NCBI GenBank assembly: GCA_965204725.1
Contig: OZ242005.1
Span: 2,624,001-2,688,000 of the forward strand
Length of the DNA: 64,000 nucleotides
Direction: 5' to 3'
From: Candidatus Latescibacterota bacterium
GTDB lineage: Bacteria > Latescibacterota > UBA2968 > UBA8231
Shown here: positions 627-34,364 of the stretch, one piece after another
How the letters are laid out: the number at the start of each line of letters is the position of its first letter
How positions within the stretch are numbered: position 1 is the first letter of the stretch
Position numbers and translations under genes: made by a program
The notes under the pieces: model-generated
What the model saw: only the letters and a program-made list of their open reading frames with translations
Told to the model about the DNA's origin: nothing
Database searches by the model: none

Positions 627-768
627 GGCTCATCCTTCCTTGAACTGGGGGACGAGATTTTCTATATAGTAGGCAAAATAAGGCCATATCGACTCGTTGC
701 CAAAAGTCATTTCACAAGCACTGGCTGCCAACAGGCGCCGCTGCCTCGGTTATATTGGGAGTGCTTCG

Positions 769-7944: not shown

Positions 7945-10900
7945 CTAATAGGCGATCGAGAGCAGGCGCGCCCGCGTCGCCGAGCGGCTTCCCCGATCTA
8001 CGTCGAGGTTCACTTGGCAAAGGTAGAGTCCGGGCGGCACTTTGCGGCCGTTCAGGTTTGTTCCGTCCCAGCGCGTGCTGAAGCGACCGCTTTGCAACCG
8101 CTGGACATGCTCCCAAACTGGGCGACCCGCCAGTGTGTACACTCGCACCCGAGCCCGTCGTGGAGCGGTGAGCTTGAAGACGGAGAAGTGGATTTCGGTC
8201 GCGTCGTTTATGCCATCGCCGTTGGGGGTAAACGGATTGGGGGCGATGCGGAATTCGTCAACGGCCTTGGCGTTGAGCGGTAGGTTGATCGAAAGGGTAT
8301 TGCTGCCTATCCGCGCTGTCGCGTCGCCCGCTTCGACGCTTTGCCAAGGCGCGGCCATGTTGGCACCGCCGCCGGTGTTGCGCACGGCCAGCCCCAAGGT
8401 CGTGCCGTTGACAAAGACGGGAGCGGCAAAGCGCAGTCGCATTAGGGGGCCTGCGGCGACCACGGTTCCTCGGGCGGAGGTAGGCATGCGGTTATAAGCC
8501 GTCCTATCGAGCGAGTCGCCCACTGCATCAAAGGGGAACTGGGCCCCATCGCCGCGCAGGATACGGAAGTAGCGAATCGGCCCCTGCTGGTCGGCCTCCA
8601 ACGCTTGGTAGGCGACTTTGGAGACTTCGGACAGGATGTGCGCGCCTTGGGCGTCCACGGTGCGGCGGAAATAGCGGATATCGCCCTGTTCCTCCACCTC
8701 GAGCAGGCCATAGGCTGCATCCGTCAGCGGCAAGCCATCTGCGGTCACCGGCACTTGGTCGCCCTCAGCGGTGCGGCGGTGGTACGTGCGGGGGGCATCT
8801 ACAGGCGCGTTGAGGGATTCGGGGAGGCGCACCCAGAGCGAATCGGCACTAGGACTCAGCAGTTCGAGTTGGCTGCGGCCCCCATCGGCAAAAGCGGTAG
8901 GGTCTCCCGCGGGCGAGAAGATCCGCTCCGCTCCAACCGCGCTGTCTTGGATGCCCACTTCGAGAAGTTGCAGCGCTTGGGAGGGGGGCATGACGAGGAG
9001 GATTTCGTCAAAGCCGACGCTGCGCGAGGAGGCGGGCGACTCGATAAACTGAGACTGGACAAAGACCTCGAAGGTATCGATCCGTCCTGGCACCTTTACT
9101 TCAAGGGGCCATAGCTCGGCCACTATATTGGAGACTACCGGGTTGACGAGTTCGATGTTTATGGAGTGGATCGCCGCGGCTATATTGCGGTCTGTAGTCT
9201 CCATCTTGACTTGAATCTGCAGGAACTGGCGCAGCCCCGGCGAAGTGACGCGGTCGCCCGACTGCTGATAGGCTCGACTATAGGGACTCCAGCCGCTAGT
9301 CGGCACAAAGGAGGTATCAATCGGCCCCTTGTAACTGCGGAGCAAGCTGTCCCAAGCATCAAAAGTGAGTTCGGTGCCGGATTTGTCGAAGTATCGGATG
9401 GTTTTGCCCAGCAGATCGCCGGATCGGGTGCGAATTTCGAGGTTGGTGCCGGGTGGGACCTCGCTCTCGTAGGTGATGCGACCGAAGCTGCGAGCGGCTG
9501 GCAATTCAATCAGGTCCGAAGTCAGTACTACCTCGGCGGGGTAGCCTTGGGAAAAGATCTGGTATTCGCCAATATCAGCACCCGTATTGTAGCCACCGCG
9601 GCGGCGAGGATCCACGGAGACGATGGTCATTTCGAGAAAGCGGAGTTCGATTCCATCGTAGGTGTCGAGGAGGTGCTCGTAGAGGTCAACGCTGTTATCT
9701 TCGCGCGCTCGTGGGCTGATGCGGTGCCACTTCAAGCGGCCGGAGGAATCCCGCGAGCCATCCGAGCCGCGCATGATATAGCCGTCGATGACGCGCCGCC
9801 GCCCGGAAGCCGAAACCGCTATGGCGTCGAGGAAGAAGGAAGCACCCATATCGACGGTCAGTACGCCACGCTCGATGAGCGGCGACCAGACCAAGTGCAA
9901 GAAGTTGGTATTGTAGTCGCCGTCAAAGCCCGGGCCGGGCGCGAAATTTTCCCCTGAGAGGAAGAGACTGCCGCCGCCCTCGACGATCCCGGGGCTGATG
10001 TTGTCGCCAAAGCCCCAAACCTCAATATCGGCTAGGCGGGGCCGCTCGCGGACGAAGAATTTTTTAGCTCCTCGCCTTGCGGGTGGCAGGTTGTCGTAGA
10101 ACGTCTCCACCGGCTCTTGGAGGCGGCTCTGGTCTAAGCGTTCCTCAAAACCCTGCCGGTCTTTGACAAAATAGAGGATGTCGCCTCGGTCAGACGGGTC
10201 GAGCGCGAGCCACTGCTCTTCATTGACTTCGGCACCGCGGCCGGCGCGGGTATCCGTGACGACGATGCGGATCGTCTGTACCAGCCGCCCGCGCCAACTA
10301 GCAGAGCTCTTAGGCTGCTCCAGCGCAAAGCTGAAGTCGCGCTGGTCTCGGTTAGGTGCTTGGGTGCCGCCAATGCGGCTCAGTTCCACTTCGTCGGCGT
10401 CTTCAAGGATGGCTTCTTGGTCGGGCGCGGTTAGGACCCTGAAGCGCAGGAACGGGTCGCCAAGCGCTGCGCCTACGAAGTGCAACAAAATCTCATCGAC
10501 CGCCACGACCCGGCCCAAGTCCACTTCGATCCACCAGTCTTTGAGGGGATCGTTGCGGTCCGGTTCCCAGTAGGTGCTTGGGTCGCCATCGAGGATGTTT
10601 TTTGCTGCTTGCGGATTGGAGCCTACCCGGCTGATACCCGGCCGGGCGAAATAGGTATAGAGAGGGTTGTCTTTTCGGTCGGTAATGACGTTGCCCTTCA
10701 CGTCCACTGTGACGGTGCTGTCGATATTGAGGGTGGCGTGCTGGTTTTTCCTGCGCCTAAACTCGGTCAGCGGGCGGGTAAAGGTATCTTGGTCGTCGAG
10801 GATATTGTAGCGCTGGCGCGAGCGGTGGGGTCGAACCCCTCCTTCGGGTATCACGTCAACGGCATGGACGGGTAGCTGCCAGTTGCGCCAGTGTTCGGCG

Positions 10901-11049
10901 GTCTCGACGACGATGCGGCTATTGGTAACCCGATGTCCTTTGCTGCGCTGAGCGAGTGCTTCGCGTCCGCCAGCGAGCAGGCCTAGGCAAAAAATTAAGG
11001 CGCAGAACAGAGGCGACGACTGGACGAGCCGTTTGCTGGAATGTCCCAT
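7945..11049 (-). CDS. Large secreted protein with discoidin/F5-8-like segment and C-terminal FTPNGD/FlgD-Ig-like domain
   Basis: ATG at 11049 follows AGGAGG; signal peptide ..REALA-Q. Contains NILDGDPSTYW..WWIEVDLGR. The C-terminus has PNPFTPNGDGIND..VYTLAGR..WDG..VPPGLYL. Confidence 0.8.
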   Translation of the reverse strand: MGHSSKRLVQSSPLFCALIFCLGLLAGGREALAQRSKGHRVTNSRIVVETAEHWRNWQLPVHAVDVIPEGGVRPHRSRQRYNILDDQDTFTRPLTEFRRRKNQHATLNIDSTVTVDVKGNVITDRKDNPLYTYFARPGISRVGSNPQAAKNILDGDPSTYWEPDRNDPLKDWWIEVDLGRVVAVDEILLHFVGAALGDPFLRFRVLTAPDQEAILEDADEVELSRIGGTQAPNRDQRDFSFALEQPKSSASWRGRLVQTIRIVVTDTRAGRGAEVNEEQWLALDPSDRGDILYFVKDRQGFEERLDQSRLQEPVETFYDNLPPARRGAKKFFVRERPRLADIEVWGFGDNISPGIVEGGGSLFLSGENFAPGPGFDGDYNTNFLHLVWSPLIERGVLTVDMGASFFLDAIAVSASGRRRVIDGYIMRGSDGSRDSSGRLKWHRISPRAREDNSVDLYEHLLDTYDGIELRFLEMTIVSVDPRRRGGYNTGADIGEYQIFSQGYPAEVVLTSDLIELPAARSFGRITYESEVPPGTNLEIRTRSGDLLGKTIRYFDKSGTELTFDAWDSLLRSYKGPIDTSFVPTSGWSPYSRAYQQSGDRVTSPGLRQFLQIQVKMETTDRNIAAAIHSINIELVNPVVSNIVAELWPLEVKVPGRIDTFEVFVQSQFIESPASSRSVGFDEILLVMPPSQALQLLEVGIQDSAVGAERIFSPAGDPTAFADGGRSQLELLSPSADSLWVRLPESLNAPVDAPRTYHRRTAEGDQVPVTADGLPLTDAAYGLLEVEEQGDIRYFRRTVDAQGAHILSEVSKVAYQALEADQQGPIRYFRILRGDGAQFPFDAVGDSLDRTAYNRMPTSARGTVVAAGPLMRLRFAAPVFVNGTTLGLAVRNTGGGANMAAPWQSVEAGDATARIGSNTLSINLPLNAKAVDEFRIAPNPFTPNGDGINDATEIHFSVFKLTAPRRARVRVYTLAGRPVWEHVQRLQSGRFSTRWDGTNLNGRKVPPGLYLCQVNLDVDRGSRSATRARLLSIAY

Positions 11050-11189
11050 AGCGACCTCCTGATTGGGCAGGCGGCGGGTCTCCACTCGACGGGCCGAGTG
11101 GCCTTGGCCCATTGAGCTTGTGTGTAGAATACCAATTTGGCAAGGCTGCGTAAATAGATCGCGTCAACATCGAGATTGAGCAGCCACCC

Positions 11190-12833
11190 TTAGCGTCGCA
11201 GGAGACTGTCGGGCACGGCTTCGCGCAGGCGCACTGAGTCGATCTGGATCTGGGCCGCGTACTGTTCTCGCAATTTCTCCAACAGGGCTTGCAGGTGCCA
11301 GTGCTCCCGCTCTCGGCGCAACAGGGCCGCGGCCCGCTTCCGAACCTGTTCGTAAGGTTCGATGGAGGCCTCCTCACGGTCGAGTACGCGAAAGAGGGAA
11401 AAGCCTCCCTCAACGGCCACGGGGCCGACGAGCTCGCCCTCGGATGCGTCCTCAATCGCCGCCATCAGTTTGGGATAGATGGCATACTCTAGCGGATGGA
11501 AGTGGAATCGATTGGCTTTCTCAACAGCGTCCGACCGCAGGCTTTCACCCGCTAGGTCGGCGAAGGGCGTGCCACTTTCTAGCTGCGCTCTCTTTTTTTC
11601 GGCCTCGTCGGCACTGGGCAGGAGTAATTCCTCAACCCACACGGCCGGCTCGTGGCTAAAAACCTCGGGATGGCTTTCGTAGTAGCGGCGCACATCCGCC
11701 TCGGCTATAGCCAGCTTCCGGGCTATGGCCTCTTTGAGACCGTCGAGCAAGACTTCCTCTTCTTTGGTCTCTTTTAGCTGATAGATCGCGGGTTTTTCGT
11801 AGTAGCCGGCTCGCCGGGCGGCCTCTTGGATGAGGAAGGGATTCAGCACGATGCGTTTGAGCGTGGCGGCGGCCTGAACGCCATCGGCGAAGCCGAAGCC
11901 GATATGCTGCTCTTGCAAAACCTTCACGGCTGCGGCCACGGTGATCTCGCCCTCGTCAAAAGTATATAGGGGAAGCGATTCTGTGGTCAGCGAAGAGAGA
12001 TCCTGTAGGCGATAGGCGGTTACCAGCGGCTGCAGGGCCTCTTCAGTTAGCCGCACTTCAAAGGCGTTCTGGAGCAACTCGAGGTGTTCCTTTGTGGCTT
12101 GGGTAGAGCGCTCCGCAAAGAGCCGCCTTTGGATGGAGTCGCGATACTTGTCGTAGGCGGCAGGACGTTCTGCGGTGAAGCGCACGATGTTCCAGAACTT
12201 GCCCGTGTACACAGGTTGCGAGATCGCGCCGAGGGGGAGGGTGCGGAAAACCTCTGGTGGGATGTGAATCCGCGGTGCCATGTCGCGCCCGATGAACCCC
12301 AACTCGCCGCCTTGGCGGGCCGAGCGCACATCGCTAGAGTGGGCCGCGGCTACTTCTGCAAAGGGTCGCCCGGCGCGCAGTTGGGCCAAAACCGAATCGG
12401 CCTCCGTCTGGCTCTCTACCAGTATGCCGCTGACTTTGCGCTCTATACCATACCCTTCGGCGTCGAAATAAGCGCGAATCTCGTCTGCGGAAATTGCGAT
12501 TGCATCCGTGATCTCGCGGGCTCGATAGAGGGCCCGAACTCGGTTGTCGATTGCGTCCTGAACCGTTGCGCGCACGGCCTGCGTGGTATCGATCCCGCGG
12601 GAACGGGCTTCCATCAGCAACAGCCGGGCGTCGATCATGGTCTGAAGATAGTATCGCCGGGCTTGGTCGGCGGTCTGTGAAGGGGGTCTGCTCCCCGACC
12701 ATTCGGCGACAAAACTCTTCAGCGCAGCGGCCGTGATGCGGTACGGCCCTACTTCCGCTACGGGCGGTTCCCGCAAGAGACCGCAGCCACTTGCCGCGCC
12801 CACGCAGGCGACCCACAGGTAGCGCAGCAGCAT
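11190..12833 (-). CDS. PpiC/SurA-type peptidyl-prolyl isomerase lipoprotein (two parvulin domains)
   Basis: Lipobox-like MLLRYLWVACVGAASGC; parvulin motif FAEVAAAHSSD..GGELGF; second domain FADLA..GELVGPV. The start was chosen from the signal peptide. Confidence 0.8.
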   Translation of the reverse strand: MLLRYLWVACVGAASGCGLLREPPVAEVGPYRITAAALKSFVAEWSGSRPPSQTADQARRYYLQTMIDARLLLMEARSRGIDTTQAVRATVQDAIDNRVRALYRAREITDAIAISADEIRAYFDAEGYGIERKVSGILVESQTEADSVLAQLRAGRPFAEVAAAHSSDVRSARQGGELGFIGRDMAPRIHIPPEVFRTLPLGAISQPVYTGKFWNIVRFTAERPAAYDKYRDSIQRRLFAERSTQATKEHLELLQNAFEVRLTEEALQPLVTAYRLQDLSSLTTESLPLYTFDEGEITVAAAVKVLQEQHIGFGFADGVQAAATLKRIVLNPFLIQEAARRAGYYEKPAIYQLKETKEEEVLLDGLKEAIARKLAIAEADVRRYYESHPEVFSHEPAVWVEELLLPSADEAEKKRAQLESGTPFADLAGESLRSDAVEKANRFHFHPLEYAIYPKLMAAIEDASEGELVGPVAVEGGFSLFRVLDREEASIEPYEQVRKRAAALLRREREHWHLQALLEKLREQYAAQIQIDSVRLREAVPDSLLRR

Positions 12834-12927
12834 CGGCCCGTTTTTGGCGGGATGTCGGGGCATAGTATCGGCACTTGGGCGAGATAGTATTTTAAGGCGG
12901 CGCAGCACAACGACGACGCATTCGGCT

Positions 12928-14487
12928 TTACTCCGCGTCCTTCCCCTTGCCGCGGTGATCTCTTTGCAAAAAGGCGTTGGCCCAAGCACTCGTGCCCTGT
13001 AAGGCCGCGTCCTTGATGACAGCCGAGTCGCCGAGCATTTGTTCCTCTTCGCCATAGGCTTTGAGGCGGTCGTACGCACGCACCCAGATACAGTCTTTGT
13101 CGCCGACTTCGCACTGGCCTTGGCGCGTACCGCCGCAGGGGCCGTTGCGCTGGTTTTTGACGCACTGGGACTCGGGGCACAAATAGGCTATGTCCGGCAG
13201 CGAGCAGTCGCCGCAGTCGCGGCAGTCAAAAGCGGCGATTTTGAGCGCGTGCTCCACGGCGTGCAGGGGCTTTTGCAGTTTCCCGCCCTCAACTTGGCGC
13301 GACAGGGCCGCTCCGAGGCGAAACAGGGCCTGGCCTCGCTCAAAGACGCGGTCGTGGATCTGGCGATTGATCCGGTACGGTAGGGAGGCTTTTTGCCGGC
13401 TGCTGGGCGTCTTTGAGTCGAGATAGGCTGGGTTGACTTGGGTGGAGGCTAGGCCGGTGTCGGGGTCTTGGGCAAAATAGAAGAATTCCCCGGGGCGCGA
13501 GTAGCAAATCTGGCGGGCAAAATCGCGCCAGTCGTCGGCCGCGTACTGGGCGGCTAGTTCCAAAATGCGGCCGTATTCCTCGGCGTTGATGTGCCCCCCC
13601 AAGTACACGCCGCGGTAGCCCAGCCCCCGGGCAATGGCGCACTGCCGGGCCGCGAATTCGAGGAAGAAGGCTTTGCCCTTGTCCGGGGATGCGGCCTGCT
13701 TCTGCGCGAGGGCGAGCAATTCGTCGGTGACTTCGACGCCGGGGATGCGGCCGGCGTGAAAAAATCGGGCCACGCCCCCAGACAAGACAAAGACATTGGC
13801 GATGACCGGAACTTGGAGGTCGTGCAGGGTTAGGTACTTGAGCAGCTCGTCCTGCTTGCGGGCGTCGTAGCCGATTTGGCTGATGATGAAGCGAGCGCCG
13901 GTGCGGATCTTTTTGGCCAGCTTGAAATACTGTGGCATGACCTCGGATTCGAGCCGCTTGTGGTTGTTGACTACGGCGCCGAGATAAAAGCGGGTGGGGT
14001 TTAAGGGGCGCGGCTTGCGGCCCGGCGCGGCCTCGGCAAAACGCCCCTCGTTCATGTCGGAGAGCAATTGCAACAAGCCGACTGAATCCACATCGAATAC
14101 GCCGCTGGCTTGGCCTTGATACCCGGCGATGGGGTAATCGCCCGACAGGGTGAGGATATTGTCGAAGCCCCCATTGGCCAGCTTCCAGGCTTGGCCCAGC
14201 AGCCCGTTGCGGTTGAAATCCTTGCAGGAGAGGTGGATGATGACCTCTTGGCCCCCCTCCTTGAGCGGCGTGCCCAGCGCGTCCGCGGCGAGCATGGGAT
14301 TGCCGCCGGGATTGTCGGTAATCGAGAGCGCGTCAATGCGCGAATCGGCCGCTAGGCAGCGGGCCATCTCCAGCACGCGCTTACCGCCGCGGTCGGCTAA
14401 GGTGCCCCGCGACGTAACCAGCTCGACGCAGGTGATAAAGCGGTCGGTCTCTTCGAGCAGGTGGCGCAGGGTGGCGGCGTTCTGCAT
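12928..14487 (-). CDS. metF: Methylenetetrahydrofolate reductase (MetF) fused to a C-terminal MetV-like Cys-rich domain
   Basis: SITDNPGG, HLSCKDFN, LSGDYP, KKIRTGARFIISQ. C-terminal CRDCGDC..CPESQCVKNQRNGPCGG..CEV..CIW. Confidence 0.85.
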   Translation of the reverse strand: MQNAATLRHLLEETDRFITCVELVTSRGTLADRGGKRVLEMARCLAADSRIDALSITDNPGGNPMLAADALGTPLKEGGQEVIIHLSCKDFNRNGLLGQAWKLANGGFDNILTLSGDYPIAGYQGQASGVFDVDSVGLLQLLSDMNEGRFAEAAPGRKPRPLNPTRFYLGAVVNNHKRLESEVMPQYFKLAKKIRTGARFIISQIGYDARKQDELLKYLTLHDLQVPVIANVFVLSGGVARFFHAGRIPGVEVTDELLALAQKQAASPDKGKAFFLEFAARQCAIARGLGYRGVYLGGHINAEEYGRILELAAQYAADDWRDFARQICYSRPGEFFYFAQDPDTGLASTQVNPAYLDSKTPSSRQKASLPYRINRQIHDRVFERGQALFRLGAALSRQVEGGKLQKPLHAVEHALKIAAFDCRDCGDCSLPDIAYLCPESQCVKNQRNGPCGGTRQGQCEVGDKDCIWVRAYDRLKAYGEEEQMLGDSAVIKDAALQGTSAWANAFLQRDHRGKGKDAE

Positions 14488-14494
14488 GGCTTGG

Positions 14495-16387
14495 TTAGAC
14501 CGAGGCCGCGGTCAGGTTACAGGGCATGGGTTTGAATTGGCAACCCTCGACGAAGAGTTCAAAAAAGTCGGGGGTCGTCTCCAACTCGACATGCTCAATG
14601 CGCTTGGCCAGCGCTTCGATGCGGGCGCGTTTGCCAGCCGAGAGCAGCACTTCGCGCGCCCCTTGGACAGCGGCATTGCCCACCTTGGCGATTTGCGCTG
14701 GGGGTACGGGGGCCAAAAAGCCGATGTCAATGGCGGCTTGGACATCGACAAAGTTGGCAAAGCCGCCGGCGAGATAGAGCTGTTGCACGTCGCCCGGCGC
14801 GAGGCCCAAGGTCCGCAAGACGATGTACTGACCGCAGAAGTTGGCGGCTTTGGCTTGGGCTAGGTTTGAAGCGTCGAGGCGCGAGAAGGTGATGCCGCGC
14901 TCGGGGACGAGCTCAAACTGGCGCTTTTTGTCGGCAAAGACGCCCTTGGGGGTCATTAAGTCGTGGCGGCGCAACTCGGCGAGGAGGTCAATTAGCCCGG
15001 AGCCGCACAGCCCGGCCGGCGCGGTGTTGCCAATGGTTTTCCACTGCCAGCGCGCACCGTCCCAGCGGATGGATTCAATGGCTCCGTCGCACCCGGGCAT
15101 CCCATAGGTGATGCCGCCGCCCTCAAAGGCCGGGCCGGCCGGGCAAGAGGCCGCGACGAGACGGCCTTGGTGCGCGACGACGACTTCGGTGTTGGTCCCC
15201 ACATCGACCAGCATCGCGCTCTCACTGGAAAGGTCCATATCAACGGCGACTAGGTCGGCGGCCACGTCCGCGCCGACGTGGCTGGCGATTAGCGGTAGCG
15301 AGTACGCCCGCGCTTTGGGATTGGCCTTCAGACCGAGGCGGCGGGTCTTTTCGACTAGGCTGGTCGCGGTGCGCTCGCCGCTTAGATATGCGTGCTCAAT
15401 GCGCGACTTGTAGGGCTTTTGGCCAATGCTCTGCACGTCGAGGCGGAAGAGGATGTCGCGCATCGTCGAGTTGCCGGCGACCGCGATCTCGTAAATCTCC
15501 TGCCGCACAAAGCCGCCGCGCCGGCAGAGGCCCTCGATCTCGTGGTTAAGGGCCTTGACCAAGGCTTGGCGCAATTCGCCGGGGTGTTGCCCGTCGTAGG
15601 AAATGCGGTGCATGATGTCGCTGCCGCCAAAGCGCTGTGGGTTTTCAAACGCGCTCAAATGCACGCTCTCACCCGTCTCTAAATCGACTAGGTCGAGGAC
15701 AATGGTGGTGGTGCCCAAGTCAATGGCGAGGCCGTAGAGATGGCCGCGGTATTGGTCGATTTCCTCGTCGCCGTAGTAGATGGCTTGCCCGCGCCGCTGG
15801 ACTATCGGGTCGATCTCGGCGGGCCGCTCAACGGTTTGGGTTAGAATCCGGGGCGTGCGAAAAAGCGGTGCAAACTCGATATCCACATCGGCGTCTGCGA
15901 CTTGGGCTTGGCAGGCGAGCCGGAACTCGCCGCGGAGGAAGTCCTCGGCCGGCGTGGGCGCGTTGAGGGCCTGTGCCCCGCTTGTGACCTCGACGATGCA
16001 CTCGTGGCAGTGGCCCGTGCGCCCGCAGGAGGTCGGCACTCGCGCACCGAGTTGATCGGCGTAGTCGAAGAGGGTGCCGCCGGTCGATAGTGGGTACGAG
16101 GTGCCGTCGCAGCGGATGTGCCCGCGGCCGGTTGCGGCCGGGCGTTGAGCCGACTCCCAAGCCGAGCGATAGTCGAGCTGGTCGTCGCCGCCGCACTGGA
16201 ACAGCCCGCCCGGGTTTTGCGGCTTGCGCTGATTGCGGCAGCCAAAGTGGGCGGTGCATTGGTCAAAGCGGTTCTTGTACGGGCAGCGGAAGGTCGCCTG
16301 TTCGTCGGCATGGGTGGCGATGCCGGCGAGGATGCCCGACAGGCGGTCGAGACGCTTTTGGTATTCTTGGGGGTCGATTTGGGTCAT
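14495..16387 (-). CDS. Reductive activator of corrinoid proteins (RACo/RamA/AcsV-like; [2Fe-2S] + ASKHA/DUF4445)
   Basis: CGRTGHCHEC..RLACQ ferredoxin; AIDLGTTT, NPQRFGGSDIMHRI, DVGTNTE, CPAGPAFEG, GLCGSG, LAGGFA, GNAA. Confidence 0.9.
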   Translation of the reverse strand: MTQIDPQEYQKRLDRLSGILAGIATHADEQATFRCPYKNRFDQCTAHFGCRNQRKPQNPGGLFQCGGDDQLDYRSAWESAQRPAATGRGHIRCDGTSYPLSTGGTLFDYADQLGARVPTSCGRTGHCHECIVEVTSGAQALNAPTPAEDFLRGEFRLACQAQVADADVDIEFAPLFRTPRILTQTVERPAEIDPIVQRRGQAIYYGDEEIDQYRGHLYGLAIDLGTTTIVLDLVDLETGESVHLSAFENPQRFGGSDIMHRISYDGQHPGELRQALVKALNHEIEGLCRRGGFVRQEIYEIAVAGNSTMRDILFRLDVQSIGQKPYKSRIEHAYLSGERTATSLVEKTRRLGLKANPKARAYSLPLIASHVGADVAADLVAVDMDLSSESAMLVDVGTNTEVVVAHQGRLVAASCPAGPAFEGGGITYGMPGCDGAIESIRWDGARWQWKTIGNTAPAGLCGSGLIDLLAELRRHDLMTPKGVFADKKRQFELVPERGITFSRLDASNLAQAKAANFCGQYIVLRTLGLAPGDVQQLYLAGGFANFVDVQAAIDIGFLAPVPPAQIAKVGNAAVQGAREVLLSAGKRARIEALAKRIEHVELETTPDFFELFVEGCQFKPMPCNLTAASV

Positions 16388-16399
16388 GGACAGGCGTCG

Positions 16400-16726
16400 T
16401 TATCGCTCAGCAGTGCATTGTGGCAATGGCTCGATCTGAGCCAGTTCGTCTCGATATTGCTGCTCCAACTCCCAAATATCTCTGGCGTGTTGGGCCTTCA
16501 GCCAAAACTCAGGAGAGTTCCCGAACAAACGGGATAGTTTCAAGGCCATGATGGACGAAATAGCGCACTGCTCTTGCAAAAGTTCGCGGACGGTCTGTCG
16601 AGATTCACCCAACTCAGCGGCCAAAGAGTCTGCCGTTAGTGTGTAGTCGGGAAGAAAATCTTCTCTTAGCATCGCCCCAGGATGCGTGGGCGGGATGGTG
16701 CGTTTTTGAGCATTCGCAATAGCCAT
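16400..16726 (-). CDS. higA: HigA-family addiction-module antitoxin (no HigB partner visible)
   Basis: PTHPGAMLREDFL..MALKLSRLFGNSPEFWL-x-x-Q signature. Confidence 0.85.
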   Translation of the reverse strand: MAIANAQKRTIPPTHPGAMLREDFLPDYTLTADSLAAELGESRQTVRELLQEQCAISSIMALKLSRLFGNSPEFWLKAQHARDIWELEQQYRDELAQIEPLPQCTAER

Positions 16727-16759
16727 TCGTCTGTATAGATCCGTTGGAGTTCCTTTGAC

Positions 16760-17125
16760 TCAGGCCATTTGATTTTTTTTGGGCGCGACCGATCGCGGCG
16801 ATAAAACCAAGGATATTCGATGTAAAAGCTCATGTAGCTCTTCGGCGATCTCTGGATGTGGATTTTGATTGAGGGCTTGGGTTGCGATCTCCTTAGCCTT
16901 TTGCGGCTGGTTACAGTCCAATGCAAGCGTCGCAGCACTGCGGTGTAGCACCGAGTTCGTCGGCTCGATTCGTCCCTCTACTTCTAATTGAGCGATCGCC
17001 GCAAGTTCGTATTCCAATGCTTGCACAAAAAATTCATGTGCCTGTGCTCGCTGGCCTTGGATACGCGCTACAAAAGCGCGTTCGGCAAACTCCATAGCCT
17101 TATTGTGGAAATCGCGAACATTCAT
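16760..17125 (-). CDS. Small helical (TPR-like) hypothetical protein
   Basis: 121 aa, all-helical pattern (HNKAMEFAERA..LHRSAATLALDC..HPEIAEEL); 4-nt ATGA overlap with the upstream gene. Confidence 0.7.
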   Translation of the reverse strand: MNVRDFHNKAMEFAERAFVARIQGQRAQAHEFFVQALEYELAAIAQLEVEGRIEPTNSVLHRSAATLALDCNQPQKAKEIATQALNQNPHPEIAEELHELLHRISLVLSPRSVAPKKNQMA

Positions 17126-17637
17126 TTTTTCTGCACCTCAGCAAGGGGTCGTCCAAACTCAACTACGATTACGTACGCTGGTAATAGCCCGTCAGATCGG
17201 TCTGTTTGTCTTAGCTTCTGCCTCATTCTCGCTTGCACATCGCGGTCACTACCCTTGCGAATCCCCGATATTTCCAGCCGAGCTTCGTGCTGAAAAGGGG
17301 CATCTGTCCCTTCGCCCATCCAGTAGTCAAAGCCAGTACCTTTCCACGAACGCTCGAGCACTGTATAACCGATCTCCTTCTTCACCAGTAAAACCGCAAT
17401 ACCCACCGCACCGTGTTCAGTGGCAATCTCATGGTCATTCCAACACCTGCGGGTTTGTTCCGTAATTATAGGCCATGTCAAGGAATAGCTTTTATAGCTA
17501 TATCCTCGGACGCTAAGTTGGACACCTTGCGCGTGGCCTTGTGACTCCAAACATACGCCTCCGGCCTCTGCCAGTGCCATGCCAAAGCTCGGCGTGATAG
17601 CCGGAAGGCCATTACCAAGATCGTTCAAATCTAGCAT
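17122..17637 (-). CDS. Hypothetical protein, possible restriction-endonuclease-like (PD-(D/E)xK) fold
   Basis: 171 aa; E..GTGFDYW..ARLEISG spacing resembles nuclease acidic motifs; AT-richer than the flanks. Confidence 0.55.
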   Translation of the reverse strand: MLDLNDLGNGLPAITPSFGMALAEAGGVCLESQGHAQGVQLSVRGYSYKSYSLTWPIITEQTRRCWNDHEIATEHGAVGIAVLLVKKEIGYTVLERSWKGTGFDYWMGEGTDAPFQHEARLEISGIRKGSDRDVQARMRQKLRQTDRSDGLLPAYVIVVEFGRPLAEVQKK

Positions 17638-17710
17638 AACTGAGATTGTGGTTCTCTACTTTAGCAGTTCCTTTTGAGTCATAGGAGGCTGGGCGCATTA
17701 GCGGGGTGCG

Positions 17711-18466
17711 CTACTCGTCCGCAACTTCGCTCAGCAATTCCTTGGCCAAGGACACGCAGGCGAGGGCGTCCTTGCCGTAGCCGTCGGCGCCCATGTCGTC
17801 GGCAAATTCTTGGGTCACAGGCGCGCCGCCGACCATGATTTTGACGTCGTCGCGCAAGTCGGCGTCGATGAAAGCCTCAATGGTCTTGCCCATGTTGGGC
17901 ATGGTGGTGGTCAACAGGGCCGACATGCCCAAGAGCGGCGCTTCGTGCTCTTCGACCGAGTCGATGAACTCGTCTTCGGAGGTATCGACGCCGAGGTCGT
18001 GGACGACAAAGCCGGCCCCGCGCAGCATCATAATGCACAAGTTTTTGCCGATGTCGTGCAGATCGCCCTTGACCGTGCCCATGATCACAATGCCGATGGG
18101 CTCGACGCCCGAGGCCGAGAGAATCGGCTCGATGTGAGCCATGCCGGCCTTCATGGCGCGGGCGCAGGCGAGCACTTCGGGAACGAAGATGAAGTTTTCG
18201 CGGAATTTGATGCCGACGATGGCCATGCCAGCAATCAGCCCGTCGTCCATGACTTCGAGGGCCTCCACGCCCGCGGCAATGGCTTGGCCGGTCAGCTCGT
18301 CAACCGTTTGGTGGTTGCCGTCGATGAGCGCGGCGGCGATATCCTGCATCGGTTCGCTCGCTTGGGCGAATAGATTGGTTATGCGCTCGCGCTCTTCGTC
18401 GCGCTCGATGAACTCCTCGATCTCGGCGCGGATAAATTCGTTGGCGATGTCGGTAAGGTCTGCCAT
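17711..18466 (-). CDS. Corrinoid (B12-binding) methyl-carrier protein, MtaC/MttC type
   Basis: Cap domain (IFVPEVL..ARAMKAG), GTVKGDLHDIGKNL (DxHxxG), SALLTTT, VGGAPVT. Confidence 0.93.
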   Translation of the reverse strand: MADLTDIANEFIRAEIEEFIERDEERERITNLFAQASEPMQDIAAALIDGNHQTVDELTGQAIAAGVEALEVMDDGLIAGMAIVGIKFRENFIFVPEVLACARAMKAGMAHIEPILSASGVEPIGIVIMGTVKGDLHDIGKNLCIMMLRGAGFVVHDLGVDTSEDEFIDSVEEHEAPLLGMSALLTTTMPNMGKTIEAFIDADLRDDVKIMVGGAPVTQEFADDMGADGYGKDALACVSLAKELLSEVADE

Positions 18467-18476
18467 GATCTCTTCT

Positions 18477-19511
18477 TTAGTTACGCGCTCGACCCCGGTG
18501 CCACTCTAGCACCGTGCGGGGGATGGCTTTGAGGTTTTCGATGGAGGTCTGCAAGGGGATGGCGCACTCCGGGCCGATGAGCTGGACGCCGGCTTCGAGG
18601 TTGCGCACGACTTCGGCACCAACGGTTTCCGGCCCTTTGGCAAAGAGGGTCTCGGGGTTGTTGATGTTGCCGACTAACGAGATGCGGTCGCGCACGATTT
18701 GGGTGGATTCCTCGGGCGTGTTCTTGGAGTCGTAGTGGAAGGCCGCCATGCCGGTTTGGGCGATGTACTCCATGCGGTCCACCGTGCGGCCGCAGATGTG
18801 GAGGATGATGGGCACGGACAGCCGCTCGGCAAACTCAATGTGCAGGTCGCGCAGGTAGCGCTTGTAGTAGTCGCCGCTGACGAGGTCGCCGGTGGCGTGG
18901 TCGGGCAGGGTCAGCGCGTCGGCCCCGGCCTCAATTTGCGCTAGGCCAAACTCAATGGTGATCTCCTTCATGCGGTCGAGGCAGAGCTTGGTCTTGCCGG
19001 GGTCGTCGAGCGACAGCAGCAGAAAAGGCTCGACCCCGAAGCAGTGATAGCCCAGCGACCAAGGGCCCATGGTCTTGCCGACAATCGCGACTTCGTCGCC
19101 GTATTCGCGGCGCAAAATTTTGATCGCCTCGGTGACGCAGGCCGTGTCTGGGTGCGTACAGAGGTCGGCGGGGACGACGATGTCGTCGGGCTCGTGCCAG
19201 ATCGGCTCGCTCATGCGGACGGTGGGCCAATTGTCCTTCTGCTCCCACTGAATTTTGCATCCGAGGGCCGAGGACTCTTGGATGATGGTGAAAACCGGCA
19301 TGATGGTGTCAAAGCCCAGCTCGGTGTAGCTGGTCGCGGCCAGCCGCGCCATGAGTTCAGGCTCGCGGTTGGCCGCGGGAAAGGGGGCATCGACGAGGTC
19401 CATCAATTCAACGGTGGCCACCGAGGTCGGATTGCAGAGCGGGGTGCGGTCCACAGGCTCGCGGGCGAGGGCGGCGAGGACGCGCTCGCGGCTGGTCATC
19501 GAAGAGGGCAT
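18477..19511 (-). CDS. MtaA/CmuA-family (UroD-fold) corrinoid methyltransferase
   Basis: MTSRERVLAAL, GPWSL, QIEAGAD, Zn-binding ILHICG and GPECAIP. ATG at 19511 follows AAAGGAG. Confidence 0.88.
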   Translation of the reverse strand: MPSSMTSRERVLAALAREPVDRTPLCNPTSVATVELMDLVDAPFPAANREPELMARLAATSYTELGFDTIMPVFTIIQESSALGCKIQWEQKDNWPTVRMSEPIWHEPDDIVVPADLCTHPDTACVTEAIKILRREYGDEVAIVGKTMGPWSLGYHCFGVEPFLLLSLDDPGKTKLCLDRMKEITIEFGLAQIEAGADALTLPDHATGDLVSGDYYKRYLRDLHIEFAERLSVPIILHICGRTVDRMEYIAQTGMAAFHYDSKNTPEESTQIVRDRISLVGNINNPETLFAKGPETVGAEVVRNLEAGVQLIGPECAIPLQTSIENLKAIPRTVLEWHRGRARN

Positions 19512-19521
19512 ATAGACTCCT

Positions 19522-20250
19522 TTACTCTTGGGCACTGGGGGCTGAGAGGACGCCGCGGCTGGCCATGGCTTCGGCCTCGCGCACGGCGGCGCGCACGTTG
19601 GGGGCGCGGACGAGCAAGAGGCCTATCAAGGCATCGTGCGCTGTGCCGCAGCCGAACCGGGCTTGGTTGGGTTGGTCGGCGACTTCGTCCATTTCGCCGA
19701 GGCGGATTAGGCCGCGGACGATGGTAGCGAGGCGACGTTCTATGCCTCGGGCCGGTTCGGTGGCGCGGGCTTCGTACAGGCCCTGCCCGAGGCTGGCGAC
19801 GGCGATGGTGGCGTTGGCCTTTTTGTCGAAGATGTGCAGGGGGCGCGGCTGTAGGGGCTGCGCTGGCGGCAGCTTGCAAGCCTCTAGGAAGAGCCGCTTG
19901 ACCGCGAGCCGATGGGCGTGGCCGCAGGAAAAGCCGAGCGGGTCGGCGGTTGCTGGTTCCACGCCCTCGCGCATCTGCATGGCACGGGCGACCCTAGAAG
20001 TGATCTCGCAGCAGGGGGCGGAAAAGCCGGGTGGGTCGGCGGTTGTTGGTTCCATGCCTCCGAGCACCTGCATGGCGCGGGCGACCCCGGCGACGCGCTC
20101 GGCCGCCCCGGGACGCCGGCTGTAGGTGTGAACTTGGTAGCAGGGCCGTCCGGGGCCTTCTGGGGCATAGAGCGCGATGGAAATGTCGTCGAAGTGGGGA
20201 TCCATAGAGACCAATTCGACGCGCTCGCCAAGGTCTAAAGTTTGTGCCAT
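19522..20250 (-). CDS. Hypothetical protein, first gene of the corrinoid operon
   Basis: ATG at 20250 follows AGAGGA. Two F-x-C-G-x-x-H motifs and a 93-bp internal tandem duplication. Confidence 0.7.
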   Translation of the reverse strand: MAQTLDLGERVELVSMDPHFDDISIALYAPEGPGRPCYQVHTYSRRPGAAERVAGVARAMQVLGGMEPTTADPPGFSAPCCEITSRVARAMQMREGVEPATADPLGFSCGHAHRLAVKRLFLEACKLPPAQPLQPRPLHIFDKKANATIAVASLGQGLYEARATEPARGIERRLATIVRGLIRLGEMDEVADQPNQARFGCGTAHDALIGLLLVRAPNVRAAVREAEAMASRGVLSAPSAQE

Positions 20251-20305
20251 CTGCATTCCTCTTGACAGCAAAGTGCTAGGTTGAGTACTGTTAGCAAAAT
20301 AGCTA

Positions 20306-20318
20306 ATGGTCTGACCAT
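20306..20318. promoter_or_regulatory. FadR/GntR-type operator ATGGT-CTG-ACCAT
   Basis: Palindrome matching the FadR-subfamily TGGT-N3-ACCA consensus, located between the divergent regulator and the corrinoid operon. Confidence 0.75.
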
Positions 20319-20373
20319 CGGCAAATGTTTTTTCCGCCATCCGCGATTGAATGCCTTGACCGACTCTGCCAAC

Positions 20374-21075
20374 ATGCGCCCGGTGCAGCGCACGTCCGTA
20401 AGCGACGCGATTATCGCGCAGATAACCGACTTAATCGAGCGCAACGTCCTCAAGCCCGGCGACCGGCTGCCGCCAGAGCGCGAGCTGTGCAAGCGCTTTC
20501 AGGTTGGGCGGTCCTCCCTGCGCGAAGCCCTGCGCTCGTTGTCCATGATGGGCCTGCTCGAAGGCCGCGTGGGCGAGGGCACCTTTGTCTGCGACAAGGG
20601 CCAATACGTGGAGCGGGCGTTGCAATGGGGGTTTTTGCTCGACCGCAAGAAGCTGCAAGACCTGAGCGAGACGCGGATGATGCTCGAGTCGCAAAACGCC
20701 TATTTGGCGGCCGAGCGGGCCACGCCCGCGGACTTGGCAGCTATGGCCGACGCGCTGGCCGGCATGGCCGAGGGGCTGGCCGACGCGGGACGCTTTCTCG
20801 CCAGCGATTTGCAGTTCCACCTGCTTATCGCCCGGGCCACGCACAATTCCATTCTCTACAGCTTGCTCGAAACCACGCGCAACTATCTACAAGAATGGAT
20901 CAAGGAGAGCCTAGCGGAGCCGTCGCTGGCTGGCCCCCGAGCCGAACTGTCGCTGGCGCAGCACCGCCAGATCTTGGCGGCATTGCAGCGGCGGGATGCC
21001 GAGGCCGCACGGCAGGCGATGGCGGCGCACATTCGATCTAGCAGCGGGGATTTGGCCGAGAAGGTGCGGGGGTGA
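20374..21075 (+). CDS. GntR/FadR-family transcriptional regulator
   Basis: LKPGDRLPPERELCKRFQVGRSSLREAL winged HTH plus FCD domain (DLQFH..HRQIL..MAAHI). Confidence 0.92.
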   Translation: MRPVQRTSVSDAIIAQITDLIERNVLKPGDRLPPERELCKRFQVGRSSLREALRSLSMMGLLEGRVGEGTFVCDKGQYVERALQWGFLLDRKKLQDLSETRMMLESQNAYLAAERATPADLAAMADALAGMAEGLADAGRFLASDLQFHLLIARATHNSILYSLLETTRNYLQEWIKESLAEPSLAGPRAELSLAQHRQILAALQRRDAEAARQAMAAHIRSSSGDLAEKVRG

Positions 21076-21132: not shown

Positions 21133-21813
21133 TTAGGCTTCGCCCTCGCTTTCGCTGGCAGGTTCCCCCAGACTGCTACCAACTCTGACAATGCCTATCC
21201 TAGGTCCCGAGATAACGGTAGCGGCTTGCAAGAACAGTAAGTTCGCTTCCTCGTCCCGGTATGGCGTCAGTTGGACGCAGGTTATCAGATTGTCGCTAGC
21301 GGCTTTTTCGTTGAGCCACAAGACAGCGGAGCGCACTGGCGGCGCGAACCTGTGACTGACCAGAATGATGCGCTGGTCGTGATTCAGCGCATTGAGGTCT
21401 TCGTCATTGATATGTTCCAGCAGGGCGCTCTCGGCTTCCTCAGCCGATATACCTTTATAGCGGGCCAATATATCGACGATTTGTTCCACCTTGGCACGGG
21501 CGAAATAGCTGGCGTAGCGGACAGCTTGCCAATGAACGTCCTCCCCTGAGTCGTCGCGCTTTAGCTCGATGACGACCAGTTTTCCCTCTCTATCTACGGC
21601 CAGCAGGTCCGGTCGCTCGTTGGTTTGGTCAAAGCCGCTGAACTCTTTGCCAATTATCAACAGGTCTCTGCCCAAGACTCTGGGATGGTCGGCGATCCAC
21701 TCCTGAATGTCTGGTCGCTCCCTCAAGTCCAAATCGGCGAAATCTACTTCTTCTAGTGGTTGGGTGTCCTTGTTCCTAGGATTGATGCGAAACATCTGCG
21801 GTCCGTTGCTCAT
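21133..21813 (-). CDS. NucS/DUF91-like PD-(D/E)xK endonuclease domain protein
   Basis: ER-x-DIQEW..RPDLLAVDREGKLVVIELKR..QAVRYA. Confidence 0.78.
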   Translation of the reverse strand: MSNGPQMFRINPRNKDTQPLEEVDFADLDLRERPDIQEWIADHPRVLGRDLLIIGKEFSGFDQTNERPDLLAVDREGKLVVIELKRDDSGEDVHWQAVRYASYFARAKVEQIVDILARYKGISAEEAESALLEHINDEDLNALNHDQRIILVSHRFAPPVRSAVLWLNEKAASDNLITCVQLTPYRDEEANLLFLQAATVISGPRIGIVRVGSSLGEPASESEGEA

Positions 21814-32840: not shown

Positions 32841-34016
32841 TCACTTTCGCGCACCATGCCGGCGCAACACCACGGCGGCCTCAGATCGACCATAAGACTC
32901 CGCCTCGTGCAGCGGCGTATTGCCCTCCTTGTTTTGGGCGTTGACCTCCGCGCCGTTTTCCAAAAGCACCGCCGTCAGCGCAGAAACATCCGCCATCGCC
33001 GCTATGTGCAGCGGCGTATTGCCCTCCTTGTCTCGAGCGTTGACATCTGCGCCGTTGGCTAGCAACACCGTCGCCACCGCAGAAGCACCCGCCGCCGCCG
33101 CCCCGTGCAGCGGCGTGTAACCCTCGTCGTCTTGGGCGTTGACATCTGCGCCGTTGGCCAGCAACACCGTTGCCACCGCAGGAGCATCCGCCACTGCCAT
33201 GTGTAGCGGCGTATTGTCCTCGTCGTCTTGGGCGTTGACATCTGCGCCGTTGGCCAAAAGCACCGTTGCCACCGCAGAAGCATCCTCCTCTGCCGCCACA
33301 TGCAGCGGCGTATTGTCCTCGATGTCTTGAGCGTTGACATCCGCGCCGTTGGCCAACAGCAACACCGCCATCGCAGAGGCATCTTCCACCGCCGCCGGGT
33401 ACAGCGGCGTCCAGCCCTCGTTGTCTTGGGCGTTGACATCTGCGCCGTTTTCCAAAAGCACCGCCGCCATCGCAGAAGCATCCTTCAACGCTGCCACGTG
33501 CAGCGGCGTCCAGCCCTCGTTGTTTTGAGCGTTGACATCTGCGCCGTTTTCCAAAAGCACCGCCGCCATCGCAGAAGTATCCTCAAACGCCACCACATGC
33601 AGCGGCGTATAGCCCTCGTTGTCTTGGGCGTTGACGTTCGCTCCGTTTTTCAGCAACACCGTCGCCACCGCAGAAGTATCCTCAAACGCCACCACGTGCA
33701 GCGGCGTCCAGCCCTCGTTGTTTTGAGCGTTGACATCTGCGTCGTTTTCCAAAAGCACCCCCGCTGTCGCCTCAGCATCCGCCATCGCTGCCCCATGCAG
33801 CGGCGTCCAGCCACGGTCGTTTTTGACGTTTATCTCCGCGCCCTGTGTGAGCAGGGATTGGGTCAGCACGGGCAGGTTCATGCCCGCTGCAATGTGCAGG
33901 TCGGTCTCACCCCTGTACACCCCTTTCGGGCGGGGCTTGCGCCCCACCTCGGCGGCAAATGCCTGTTCCTGACGCTGCTGCTCCAGTAGCGACGCATCCT
34001 TCTTAACGCTTTTCAT
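32841..34016 (-). CDS. Ankyrin-repeat protein (about 11 repeats)
   Basis: Repeated G-x-TPLH-x-AA..LL-x-NGADVNA; RBS GGAAGGA. The N-terminus is homologous to the stalk/cap of 34381..36777. Confidence 0.93.
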   Translation of the reverse strand: MKSVKKDASLLEQQRQEQAFAAEVGRKPRPKGVYRGETDLHIAAGMNLPVLTQSLLTQGAEINVKNDRGWTPLHGAAMADAEATAGVLLENDADVNAQNNEGWTPLHVVAFEDTSAVATVLLKNGANVNAQDNEGYTPLHVVAFEDTSAMAAVLLENGADVNAQNNEGWTPLHVAALKDASAMAAVLLENGADVNAQDNEGWTPLYPAAVEDASAMAVLLLANGADVNAQDIEDNTPLHVAAEEDASAVATVLLANGADVNAQDDEDNTPLHMAVADAPAVATVLLANGADVNAQDDEGYTPLHGAAAAGASAVATVLLANGADVNARDKEGNTPLHIAAMADVSALTAVLLENGAEVNAQNKEGNTPLHEAESYGRSEAAVVLRRHGARK

Positions 34017-34184
34017 TGGTTTTCCTTCCGTGTGAGTGTGTGGTTGGTTGCAAAGAAGTGTTAGCCCCTCAGCAGGCCGACAACGCCGAACTGGATGCCG
34101 ATGAGCCAGCGGTCGCGGTCTTGGGCGTTAGGGGTTGGGGTGCTCGGCCTTGTCAAGCTGGCAGGCAAGGCGGGCCACCAGAGC

Positions 34185-34364
34185 GGTGCGGGTGGCAATG
34201 TCCGACGGCAAGTATTCCTTGATGGCGACAGGCTTATCCAAGTTGTGGTCAAAGCCCAGATAGGTCATGCCAAAGCCGCCAAAGCCCAACACGCGCACCA
34301 GTTCGTATTCTTGCAGCCGATAGCCTTGCGGCAAGGCGTGAAGAGGTTGGGGCACTTCGCTCAT
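34185..34364 (-). pseudogene. Truncated 5' copy of the Ser/Thr kinase gene (copy 2)
   Basis: MSEVPQPLHALPQGYRLQEYELVRVLGFGGFGMTYLGFDHNLDKPVAIKEYLPSDIATRT is near-identical to the start of 34381..36777, then the homology breaks off. Confidence 0.9.

Follow-up and report, generated by a model that had tools for sequence, protein, structure and literature searches.

In the MtgBCDE hub of Ruegeria pomeroyi, Phaeobacter inhibens and Sinorhizobium meliloti, one corrinoid carrier is served by several methyltransferases; a split MetH was reportedly first noted in another study (10.1101/192971, PMC5764234). In Ruegeria, MtgC and MtgD are required both for making methionine and for demethylating glycine betaine, and the same has been argued for the homologous locus of S. 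meliloti (Mausz et al., PMC12478193). As described there, MtgE is the homocysteine module, MtgB the substrate module and a MetF paralogue (MetF2) the entry to one-carbon (C1) oxidation; the hub doubles as split methionine synthase and demethylase, is essential for methionine synthesis in Ruegeria, and its genes are often scattered in genomes (PMC12478193). Here, we analyzed 64,000 nucleotides of contig OZ242005.1 from a Candidatus Latescibacterota bacterium (the whole stretch is called the window below), which carry a string of genes for a "hypothetical" protein, here named Hyp211, an MtaA-like methyltransferase, a corrinoid protein, the reductive activase RACo and a MetF-MetV fusion (MetFV). 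In our reading, to which we give a probability of roughly 0.55, this operon makes up the front of a modular hub for cobalamin methyl transfer of the Mtg type, in which Hyp211 and the methyltransferase would act as a demethylase of methyl compounds that feeds methionine synthesis and the folate C1 pool.

Gene content and synteny compared with the Mtg hub

The S. meliloti locus was reached by searching annotated plasmids by tblastn with the corrinoid protein; it encodes bmt, an MttB-family methyltransferase, a cobalamin-binding protein, DUF1638, a "virulence factor", MetV, MetF, a methyl-tetrahydrofolate (methyl-THF) cobalamin methyltransferase and an ASKHA activase. In the cluster family to which the operon belongs, all parts that are not substrate-specific have homologues in that locus. 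The corrinoid protein shares 44% identity with the cobalamin-binding protein of S. meliloti (its best NCBIfam match, MtgC_2, gives 206 bits, the cutoff being 370), RACo shares 31% with the ASKHA protein (Pfam domains Fer2, Raco_middle and RACo_C_ter; NCBIfam AcsV-like, 279 bits and under cutoff), and the fusion protein matches both MetF (26%) and MetV (32%). Modules present in relatives of the operon show identities of 35% (pterin-binding methyltransferase), 27% (homocysteine methyltransferase) and 45% (PF13769 protein), and in both systems a single corrinoid carrier would be served by several methyltransferases. The differences lie at the substrate end, where the MttB-family gene and DUF1638 have no counterpart here and the UroD methyltransferase and Hyp211 have none there; MtgB-type proteins of the MttB family (PF06253) were absent from 45 window open reading frames (ORFs) and from about 50 representative neighbour ORFs. 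Furthermore, MetF and MetV are fused, and MtgD-like and MtgE-like genes are missing from this window. Because every shared part has a homologue in the S. meliloti MtgBCDE locus, the operon is, as judged from sequence, an Mtg-type hub with an MtaA-like methyltransferase and Hyp211 in place of the MttB-family MtgB and DUF1638. It follows from this homology that methyl groups may reach homocysteine as well as CH3-THF oxidation, and that MetFV may run either way.

Related loci were collected by scanning with a Hyp211 profile, one genome per species, which yielded 414 relatives; the best 80 of the 414 loci were examined, and neighbours were counted within 10 kb of Hyp211, the counts being lower bounds as several loci end at contig edges. 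By record title the loci were labelled Latescibacterota/-bacteria (30), Poribacteria (23), Gemmatimonadota/-etes (12) and unclassified "bacterium" (12), with one each from Planctomycetota and from Moanabacter and Opitutales, two Verrucomicrobia-type lineages. The UroD methyltransferase stands adjacent to Hyp211 in 78 of the 80 loci, and is followed in frequency by the corrinoid protein (65), RACo (63), MetFV (38), a homocysteine S-methyltransferase (PF02574; 36), the PF13769 "virulence factor" protein (35) and a pterin-binding methyltransferase (PF00809; 20), whose best NCBIfam match is the methyl-THF:corrinoid methyltransferase model (PRK07535, 214 bits). Either or both of the pterin-binding and homocysteine methyltransferases were found in 39 loci. 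This gene arrangement is far beyond chance. In its fullest form the locus has a divergent regulator followed by Hyp211, the methyltransferase, the corrinoid protein, RACo, MetFV, the pterin-binding methyltransferase, the homocysteine methyltransferase and PF13769, and then the housekeeping gene GidA. The commonest pattern (22 loci) is that of the window and ends at MetFV, while 18 loci have the order homocysteine methyltransferase, PF13769, Hyp211, methyltransferase, corrinoid protein and RACo with neither pterin module nor MetF, and 13 have a bare pair of Hyp211 and methyltransferase. Identity across the loci is 76-98% for the methyltransferase (78 loci), 76-96% for the corrinoid protein, 61-97% for RACo and 45-89% for Hyp211. 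The conservation of the methyltransferase and corrinoid protein across phyla suggests lateral spread among co-occurring lineages together with strong constraint.

A combined ORF, Pfam and NCBIfam check of the window located every gene that had been named in a preliminary description of the same DNA, namely the hypothetical gene, the MtaA/CmuA-type methyltransferase, the corrinoid protein, RACo and MetF-MetV, all co-oriented on the minus strand between 12928 and 20250 (Table 1). The conserved genes are separated by 7-12 nt, one insert aside; the three small ORFs with which this insert interrupts the operon had been left out of the earlier gene list. The earlier statement that the window lacks an MtaB/MttB/MtvB-type or a MeTr/AcsE/CmuB methyltransferase agrees with our searches, since Pfam assigned none of the 45 large window ORFs to the MttB, MtaB or pterin-binding families, and the relatives' pterin-binding and homocysteine methyltransferases gave no tblastn match in the window at E ≤ 1e-3. 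Presumably, the pterin, homocysteine and PF13769 modules have split off from the operon in this genome and are encoded elsewhere. As to a riboswitch or other RNA upstream, the whole window had no Rfam match at gathering score, and no tRNA either; a scan for promoters and terminators was uninformative, shuffled sequences giving more sites than the real one.

Table 1. Features of the operon and its divergent regulator in the window (positions in the 64,000-nucleotide stretch).
Feature	Position	Strand	Basis and remarks
GntR-family regulator with FCD domain	20374..21075	+	Pfam, NCBIfam; ORF opens at 20281
Operator-like palindrome TGGTCTGACCA	20307..20317	.	Read from divergent intergenic sequence
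Hyp211 (unknown family)	19522..20250	-	242 aa here; ORF 19522..20340
In-frame tandem duplication inside Hyp211	19927..20087	-	Repeat comparison
MtaA/CmuA-family UroD-fold corrinoid methyltransferase	18477..19511	-	Pfam URO-D, TIGR01463, PRK06252
MtgC-type corrinoid (B12-binding) protein	17711..18466	-	Pfam B12-binding_2 and B12-binding
Low-G+C insert with three small ORFs	16400..17637	-	G+C, NCBIfam; outside the conserved system
RACo/RamA-type ATP-dependent reductive activase of corrinoid proteins, N-terminal 2Fe-2S domain	14495..16387	-	Pfam
MetF-MetV fusion: methylenetetrahydrofolate reductase domain and MetV-type C-terminal domain	12928..14487	-	Pfam MTHFR and DUF5981

The preliminary description had proposed a substrate-inducible demethylation pathway leading to CH3-THF oxidation. 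Of this, the corrinoid methyl-transfer operon and the FadR-subfamily regulator with its operator stand, but the gene set is not self-contained, as relatives add pterin, homocysteine and PF13769 modules. Missing subunits that lie elsewhere had been named as grounds for refuting it, and these grounds apply at least in part, the relatives' operon continuing with the pterin-binding (20 of 80 loci) and homocysteine (36 of 80) methyltransferases and the PF13769 protein (35 of 80). A stand-alone catabolic demethylation with CH3-THF oxidation as its sole output, unconnected to methionine synthesis, would suit a window that holds just the methyltransferase, the corrinoid protein, RACo and MetFV, and in Ruegeria MetF2 was the most induced protein on methylated osmolytes (PMC12478193). 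We nevertheless consider it quite improbable, given a homocysteine methyltransferase near Hyp211 in those 36 loci, 18 of which have neither pterin module nor MetF, and given that Ruegeria cannot make methionine without the homologous hub (PMC12478193). The same 18 loci, which have a homocysteine methyltransferase and PF13769 with no pterin module within 10 kb, could alternatively point to Hyp211 and the methyltransferase as an accessory of the split methionine synthase, either a folate-independent means of loading the corrinoid protein or a device for repair or regulation, with no nutrient demethylation; methionine synthases that use corrinoid proteins and need no folate have been described (PMC7857596). 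However, the pair occurs alone and far from a corrinoid protein in 13 loci, cultured Gemmatirosa has the corrinoid protein, RACo and homocysteine methyltransferase in the absence of Hyp211, and the scattering of Mtg genes makes absence within 10 kb weak evidence (PMC12478193), so that we hold the accessory role to be the least probable of the alternatives.

The Gemmatirosa hub consists of a divergent gene of the UroD family, a corrinoid protein whose C-terminus resembles PF13769, RACo and the homocysteine methyltransferase; by tblastn (37% over 78 aa), PF13769 appears there as a C-terminal fusion to the corrinoid protein. The small PF13769 protein accompanies split-methionine-synthase genes in all these lineages (L041:15748-16026, L080:9659-9934, L083:12909-13211 and L082:12745-12975), and its name "virulence factor" is probably a misnomer. 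Five of the 80 loci, all from Poribacteria (L041:16035-17081 and four others), have an Ldh2-family dehydrogenase between PF13769 and the homocysteine methyltransferase; in NCBIfam it matches malate/lactate/ureidoglycolate dehydrogenase best, and it scores 218 bits with the L-sulfolactate dehydrogenase model, the cutoff of which is 500. In twelve Poribacteria-labelled loci (L054, L056, L061, L063, L064, L066, L069, L070, L071, L073, L075 and L078), Hyp211 follows a PQQ/BamB-like beta-propeller gene and a beta-lactamase-family gene; the methyltransferase comes after Hyp211 except in L070 and L071, and neither corrinoid protein nor RACo lies within 10 kb.

The methyltransferase, its substrate class and the regulator

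The methyltransferase is a protein of 344 aa (Pfam URO-D, E 2.4e-59) that passes the MtaA/CmuA family cutoffs (TIGR01463, 251.1 against 235.4 bits; PRK06252, 253.2 against 244) and falls under the equivalog cutoffs for MtaA (NF040654, 226 against 400 bits) and MtbA (NF041608, 192 against 600). The HxC...C motif reported earlier is real, with H238, C240 and C316 invariant in 28 of 28 aligned orthologues, and these residues align with the LHICG and PGC segments of the MtaA structure 4AY7, which we take to hold its zinc ligands. MtaA 4AY7 is also the closest solved relative (phmmer E 4.6e-53), with about 110 of 329 residues identical, or ~33%, by our count of the alignment; after it among solved proteins come genuine uroporphyrinogen decarboxylases, with E values no better than 1e-12. 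Identity to CmuA of plasmid pCMU01 is 25% (E 2e-8).

Compared with the coenzyme M (CoM) methyltransferases of methanogens (MtaA, MtbA, MtsA and MtpA), the enzyme shares the UroD fold, the His-x-Cys...Cys zinc site and a small corrinoid protein as partner, and differs in its bacterial host, in the lack of any sign of CoM use and in not reaching the equivalog cutoffs. We know of no Hyp211-like obligate neighbour in the methanogen systems. The ~33% identity to MtaA is at the level found within that group, the characterized members of which share only ~30% among themselves (PMC10418091). According to the same source, the His-Cys-Cys triad marks the S- and Se-methyltransferases of the UroD superfamily, and O-demethylases have carboxylates in place of the cysteines; here both cysteines are retained and invariant, unlike in aromatic O-demethylases such as MtvB, OdmB, VdmB and MtoB, in which a carboxylate stands for one or both of them. 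The O-demethylases and CdmB fall in another part of the superfamily; haloalkane dehalogenases are also among the methyltransferases of the superfamily (PMC13222342), and MtpA, an enzyme of the MtaA family, demethylates methylmercaptopropionate (10.1101/548461). Because the triad is invariant and the O-demethylases and CdmB are placed elsewhere in the superfamily, a soft-nucleophile class of substrate (thiolate, selenide, possibly halide) is best supported for this predicted methyltransferase.

The type 1 mlp clusters of anaerobes and the Sdm system of Methanococcus voltae are alike in combining a bacterial MtaA-like methyltransferase, a corrinoid protein and a RACE/RACo activase with a His-Cys-Cys triad and no H4folate methyltransferase in the cluster, and a methyl-S or methyl-Se substrate was proposed there (PMC10418091). 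Type 1 clusters differ in that their definition calls for at least two paralogous Mlps (Mlp2 and Mlp3), as against one UroD gene and Hyp211 per cluster here; the present lineages are not Firmicutes, and the relatives examined here link explicitly to folate and homocysteine modules. The Cmu pathway of Methylorubrum extorquens CM4 (pCMU01) and CdmBCA of Acetobacterium dehalogenans share a UroD-superfamily methyltransferase I, a corrinoid module and a link to folate C1 metabolism (PMC13222342). In CmuA, however, the methyltransferase and corrinoid domains are fused whereas the genes are separate here, the figure of 25% identity applying to the methyltransferase part, and metF, folD and purU lie near cmuA, whereas the operon has the MetF-MetV fusion alone, with no CmuB, folD or purU. 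CdmB groups with the O-demethylases (PMC13222342), and Cmu and Cdm have no counterpart of Hyp211 in the stretches examined. The comparisons with Mtg, the CoM methyltransferases, mlp and Cmu thus each reveal differences, in line with the earlier remark that the gene set matches no characterized system exactly. In the main text of open-access papers, we found none in which an MtaA-like module or a Hyp211-like protein is connected with these lineages or with the Mtg hub. The novelty is an orphan partner family, Hyp211, and an MtaA-like input on a known type of hub.

The divergent gene encodes a regulator with GntR (Pfam E 7.4e-19) and FCD (E 2.2e-26) domains, which places it in the FadR subfamily of GntR regulators; its start is probably the ATG at 20374. 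The preliminary description had called it FadR and had noted an operator. The GntR/FCD regulator and the palindrome TGGTCTGACCA are both there, but FadR itself was rejected, the equivalog models giving 29 bits against a cutoff of 189 and 26.9 against 249; the best NCBIfam matches are NanR, LldR, UxuR and PdhR, every one under its cutoff. The palindrome, present a single time in the window, lies in the 123 bp between the divergent genes, at 57 nt from each start codon. A homologue of the regulator stands divergently in 43 of the 80 related loci (identity 55-98%), and the motif, with a central T or A, is kept in 31 of 40 loci that have a divergent regulator. Regulators of the FadR subfamily are typically carboxylate sensors. 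None of the neighbour ORFs of related loci is a conserved transporter of the operon, which would fit a membrane-permeant substrate or a transporter encoded elsewhere.

Two other roles for the methyltransferase have to be weighed against demethylation on behalf of the hub. On the acceptor side, the enzyme, with Hyp211, could move CH3 that derives from CH3-THF and MetFV from methyl-corrinoid to a thiol, sulfide, selenide or similar nucleophile, much as CoM is methylated by MtaA, and act as a methyl-donating branch of the hub that serves biosynthesis or detoxification. The closest solved relative is a methylcobalamin:CoM methyltransferase with the same His-Cys-Cys triad, MetFV and the pterin module would be able to supply CH3-THF, and ClMlp2, an MtaA-like bacterial enzyme, was assayed for transfer from methylcobalamin to selenide (PMC10418091). 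The Ldh2-family dehydrogenase in the cluster of the five Poribacteria loci, which scored under the cutoff of the sulfolactate dehydrogenase model, would also agree with such a role. However, no acceptor-biosynthesis gene is conserved, the module sits where the substrate methyltransferase MtgB stands in the homologous S. meliloti locus, and an inducible FadR-type repressor would better suit catabolism. Acceptor-side transfer is unlikely on balance, though it ranks first among the alternatives.

A methyl-halide dehalogenase that acts like CmuA or CdmB, transferring the methyl group of CH3Cl, CH3Br or CH3I to the corrinoid and leaving MetFV to start CH3-THF oxidation, ranks behind it and ahead of stand-alone catabolism, and we regard it as doubtful. 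It would agree with the score above the MtaA/CmuA family cutoff, with a metF neighbour, which the cmu cluster has too (folD and purU being next to cmuA there), with a gaseous substrate that needs no transporter and with the presence of haloalkane dehalogenases among UroD-superfamily methyltransferases (PMC13222342). Against this, identity to CmuA is only 25%, compared with ~33% to MtaA, and a tblastn search of the plasmids with the methyltransferase (E ≤ 1e-5) missed cmuA on pCMU01 and returned only distant UroD/HemE genes at 23-28%, while the corrinoid protein, 34% identical to the CmuA corrinoid domain, did find cmuA. The operon also lacks folD and purU, and sensing of halomethanes by a FadR-type regulator seems unlikely.

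Hyp211 and the proposed mechanism

The preliminary description had treated the hypothetical gene as incidental, which does not hold, Hyp211 being both the most novel and, with the methyltransferase beside it in 78 of 80 loci, the most tightly linked part of the operon. Its real start is probably M31 at 20250, giving the length of 242 aa that its closest relatives have; coverage of 89% of the longer ORF by relatives fits this. We found 1058 relatives, mostly of ~211 aa and every one unnamed or "hypothetical", and an exhaustive HMMER search gave 279 representatives at 50% identity, none of which is fused to a known domain. The sequence P0236, which joins the N-terminal half of Hyp211 to the start of URO-D, is probably a frameshift or read-through. 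The window protein had no family match in Pfam (E ≤ 10), NCBIfam or PADLOC, none of the 42 members of an alignment of the family (A1) had a Pfam match at E ≤ 1, and the profile matched no PDB sequence under E 0.6. Two AF2 models with a mean confidence (pLDDT) of 86.3 and 89.7 gave no Foldseek match in the PDB at E ≤ 0.001; EutL and PUR-repeat proteins, the best matches, were dismissed as chance at a TM score of ~0.2. Queries of the ESM Atlas with the window protein and P0020 returned no usable match, and the idea of a diverged DUF1638 was rejected at an hhalign probability of 0.2%.

The two halves of Hyp211 align with each other (hhalign probability 97-98%; E 3.6e-11 global, 2.9e-13 local), and by this sequence comparison the protein is the product of an ancient internal duplication. 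Each predicted repeat is a beta-beta-beta-alpha-beta unit with an FxCGxxH motif at its end, which gives two motifs per protein, and in the close family the cysteines and histidines of the motifs, a third cysteine and the C-terminal tail (RAPNVRA...RGVLxAPSxQE) are invariant or nearly so. The window gene also has a 93-bp in-frame tandem duplication with two 68-nt copies that are 87% identical and spaced by 93 nt; it accounts for a lineage-specific 31-aa insertion in alignment A1, common to the closest relatives P0003, P0004 and L001 and poorly modelled (pLDDT 50-67). Prediction of a complex between Hyp211 and the methyltransferase, for which controls were not run, scored 0.31 against a mark of 0.32 and speaks neither for nor against binding. 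We propose that Hyp211 may be a metal-binding partner subunit of the methyltransferase, acting through its two Cys/His motifs.

In the mechanism that we favour, a hub with demethylating input, the architecture of the hub is drawn from homology and synteny: the free corrinoid protein carries the methyl group, RACo keeps it in the Co(I) state, rescuing Co(II), and MetFV connects the hub to methylene-THF. The donor-side role, the substrate class and the part played by Hyp211 are our proposal. Hyp211 and the MtaA-like zinc methyltransferase would form the substrate-specific module, in the place of MtgB in the glycine-betaine system; we infer that this pair demethylates a small methylated compound with a soft-nucleophile leaving group and passes its CH3 to Co(I) in the corrinoid protein. 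The substrate would most likely be a methyl-thioether, such as methylmercaptopropionate, dimethyl sulfide, methanethiol or another S-methyl carboxylate, and less likely a methyl-selenide or methyl halide. From the corrinoid protein the methyl group could pass to homocysteine, giving methionine, or it could enter the folate C1 pool by way of the pterin module and MetFV. The FadR-subfamily repressor, bound at TGGTCTGACCA, would make the operon inducible, with a ligand that is probably a carboxylate.

Several observations weigh against this mechanism. Neither the pterin-binding nor the homocysteine module is in the window, and in 41 of the 80 loci, some of which are cut by contig ends, no such module was found within 10 kb. 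No gene of sulfur, selenium or halide metabolism is conserved beside the module in the neighbourhoods of related loci. CmuA also has an aligned HxC...C motif, so the zinc triad is compatible with halides, and MtaA itself transfers the methyl group from methyl-corrinoid to a thiol, opposite to the direction proposed here. Two of the 16 sequences in a second alignment of Hyp211 (A2), both divergent, are without the Cys motifs. The taxonomic labels of metagenome-assembled genomes are unreliable, and an association with hosts is only inferred.

A more specific form of the demethylation reading concerns 3-methylmercaptopropionate, the demethylation of which is the second step of the "double demethylation" route of dimethylsulfoniopropionate. 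To our knowledge, a bacterial enzyme for this step has never been identified. Hyp211 and the MtaA-like enzyme might be an unrecognized two-subunit B12-dependent demethylase for methylthio-carboxylates such as this one, in which Hyp211 would be a Cys/His metalloprotein subunit of new fold; the pair would then supply a split methionine synthase as well as the folate pool directly with organosulfur methyl groups, and it would have spread laterally across several phyla of possibly host-associated bacteria. We offer this as a speculation, about as doubtful as the dehalogenase.

Neighbouring genes and meaning for the family

The insert between the corrinoid protein and RACo has a G+C content of 0.557, compared with ~0.62 in its flanks, and its ORFs encode a protein of 171 aa with no family, one of 121 aa with a weak TPR match and a HigA-family antitoxin of 108 aa (TIGR02607, 83.8 bits against a cutoff of 47.7). 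It is not conserved, as in many relatives the corrinoid protein joins RACo directly or other inserts occupy the site. The junction is a hot spot for small cassettes, seen in the window and in L001, L004, L005, L009, L018 and L019, and the cassette of L018 (16960-17355) encodes a Tse2-type ADP-ribosyltransferase toxin domain. Beyond MetFV, a protein with a CHU_C (type IX secretion) C-terminal domain and an F5/8 type C domain (7945-11112, minus strand) and a peptidyl-prolyl isomerase (11190-13079) sit where relatives have the pterin-binding and homocysteine methyltransferase genes; a second large CHU_C protein lies at 697-2886 (plus strand). Just past the regulator, an ORF of 226 aa (21133-21813, minus strand) has a NucS-like nuclease domain and matches the PADLOC candidate defence family PDC-S11 (E 7.9e-66) over the N-terminal half of the model only; a homologue was found in the neighbourhood of 2 of the 80 related loci (L006 and L015), plus a distant match of 30% in L043. 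Two ankyrin-repeat proteins, one of them fused to a Ser/Thr kinase domain, are encoded where the GC skew reverses (32841-36777, minus strand), and eukaryote-like repeat proteins of this type are typical of host-associated bacteria. At 41059-43296 (minus strand), an MgsA/RarA-type AAA+ ATPase has an extra C-terminal S-adenosylmethionine-dependent methyltransferase domain (Methyltransf_23), an unusual fusion.

Modular B12 hubs have recently been shown to tie osmolyte demethylation to methionine synthesis in abundant marine bacteria, and so far only inputs of the MttB family are known. The operon family described here appears to plug a different input into the same hub, namely an MtaA-like thiol-type methyltransferase together with an obligate partner that has no known fold. 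Identification of the substrate would add a route of methyl-sulfur, methyl-selenium or methyl-halide turnover, give a conserved orphan family a function and widen what is known of the need for cobalamin in these uncultured bacteria.

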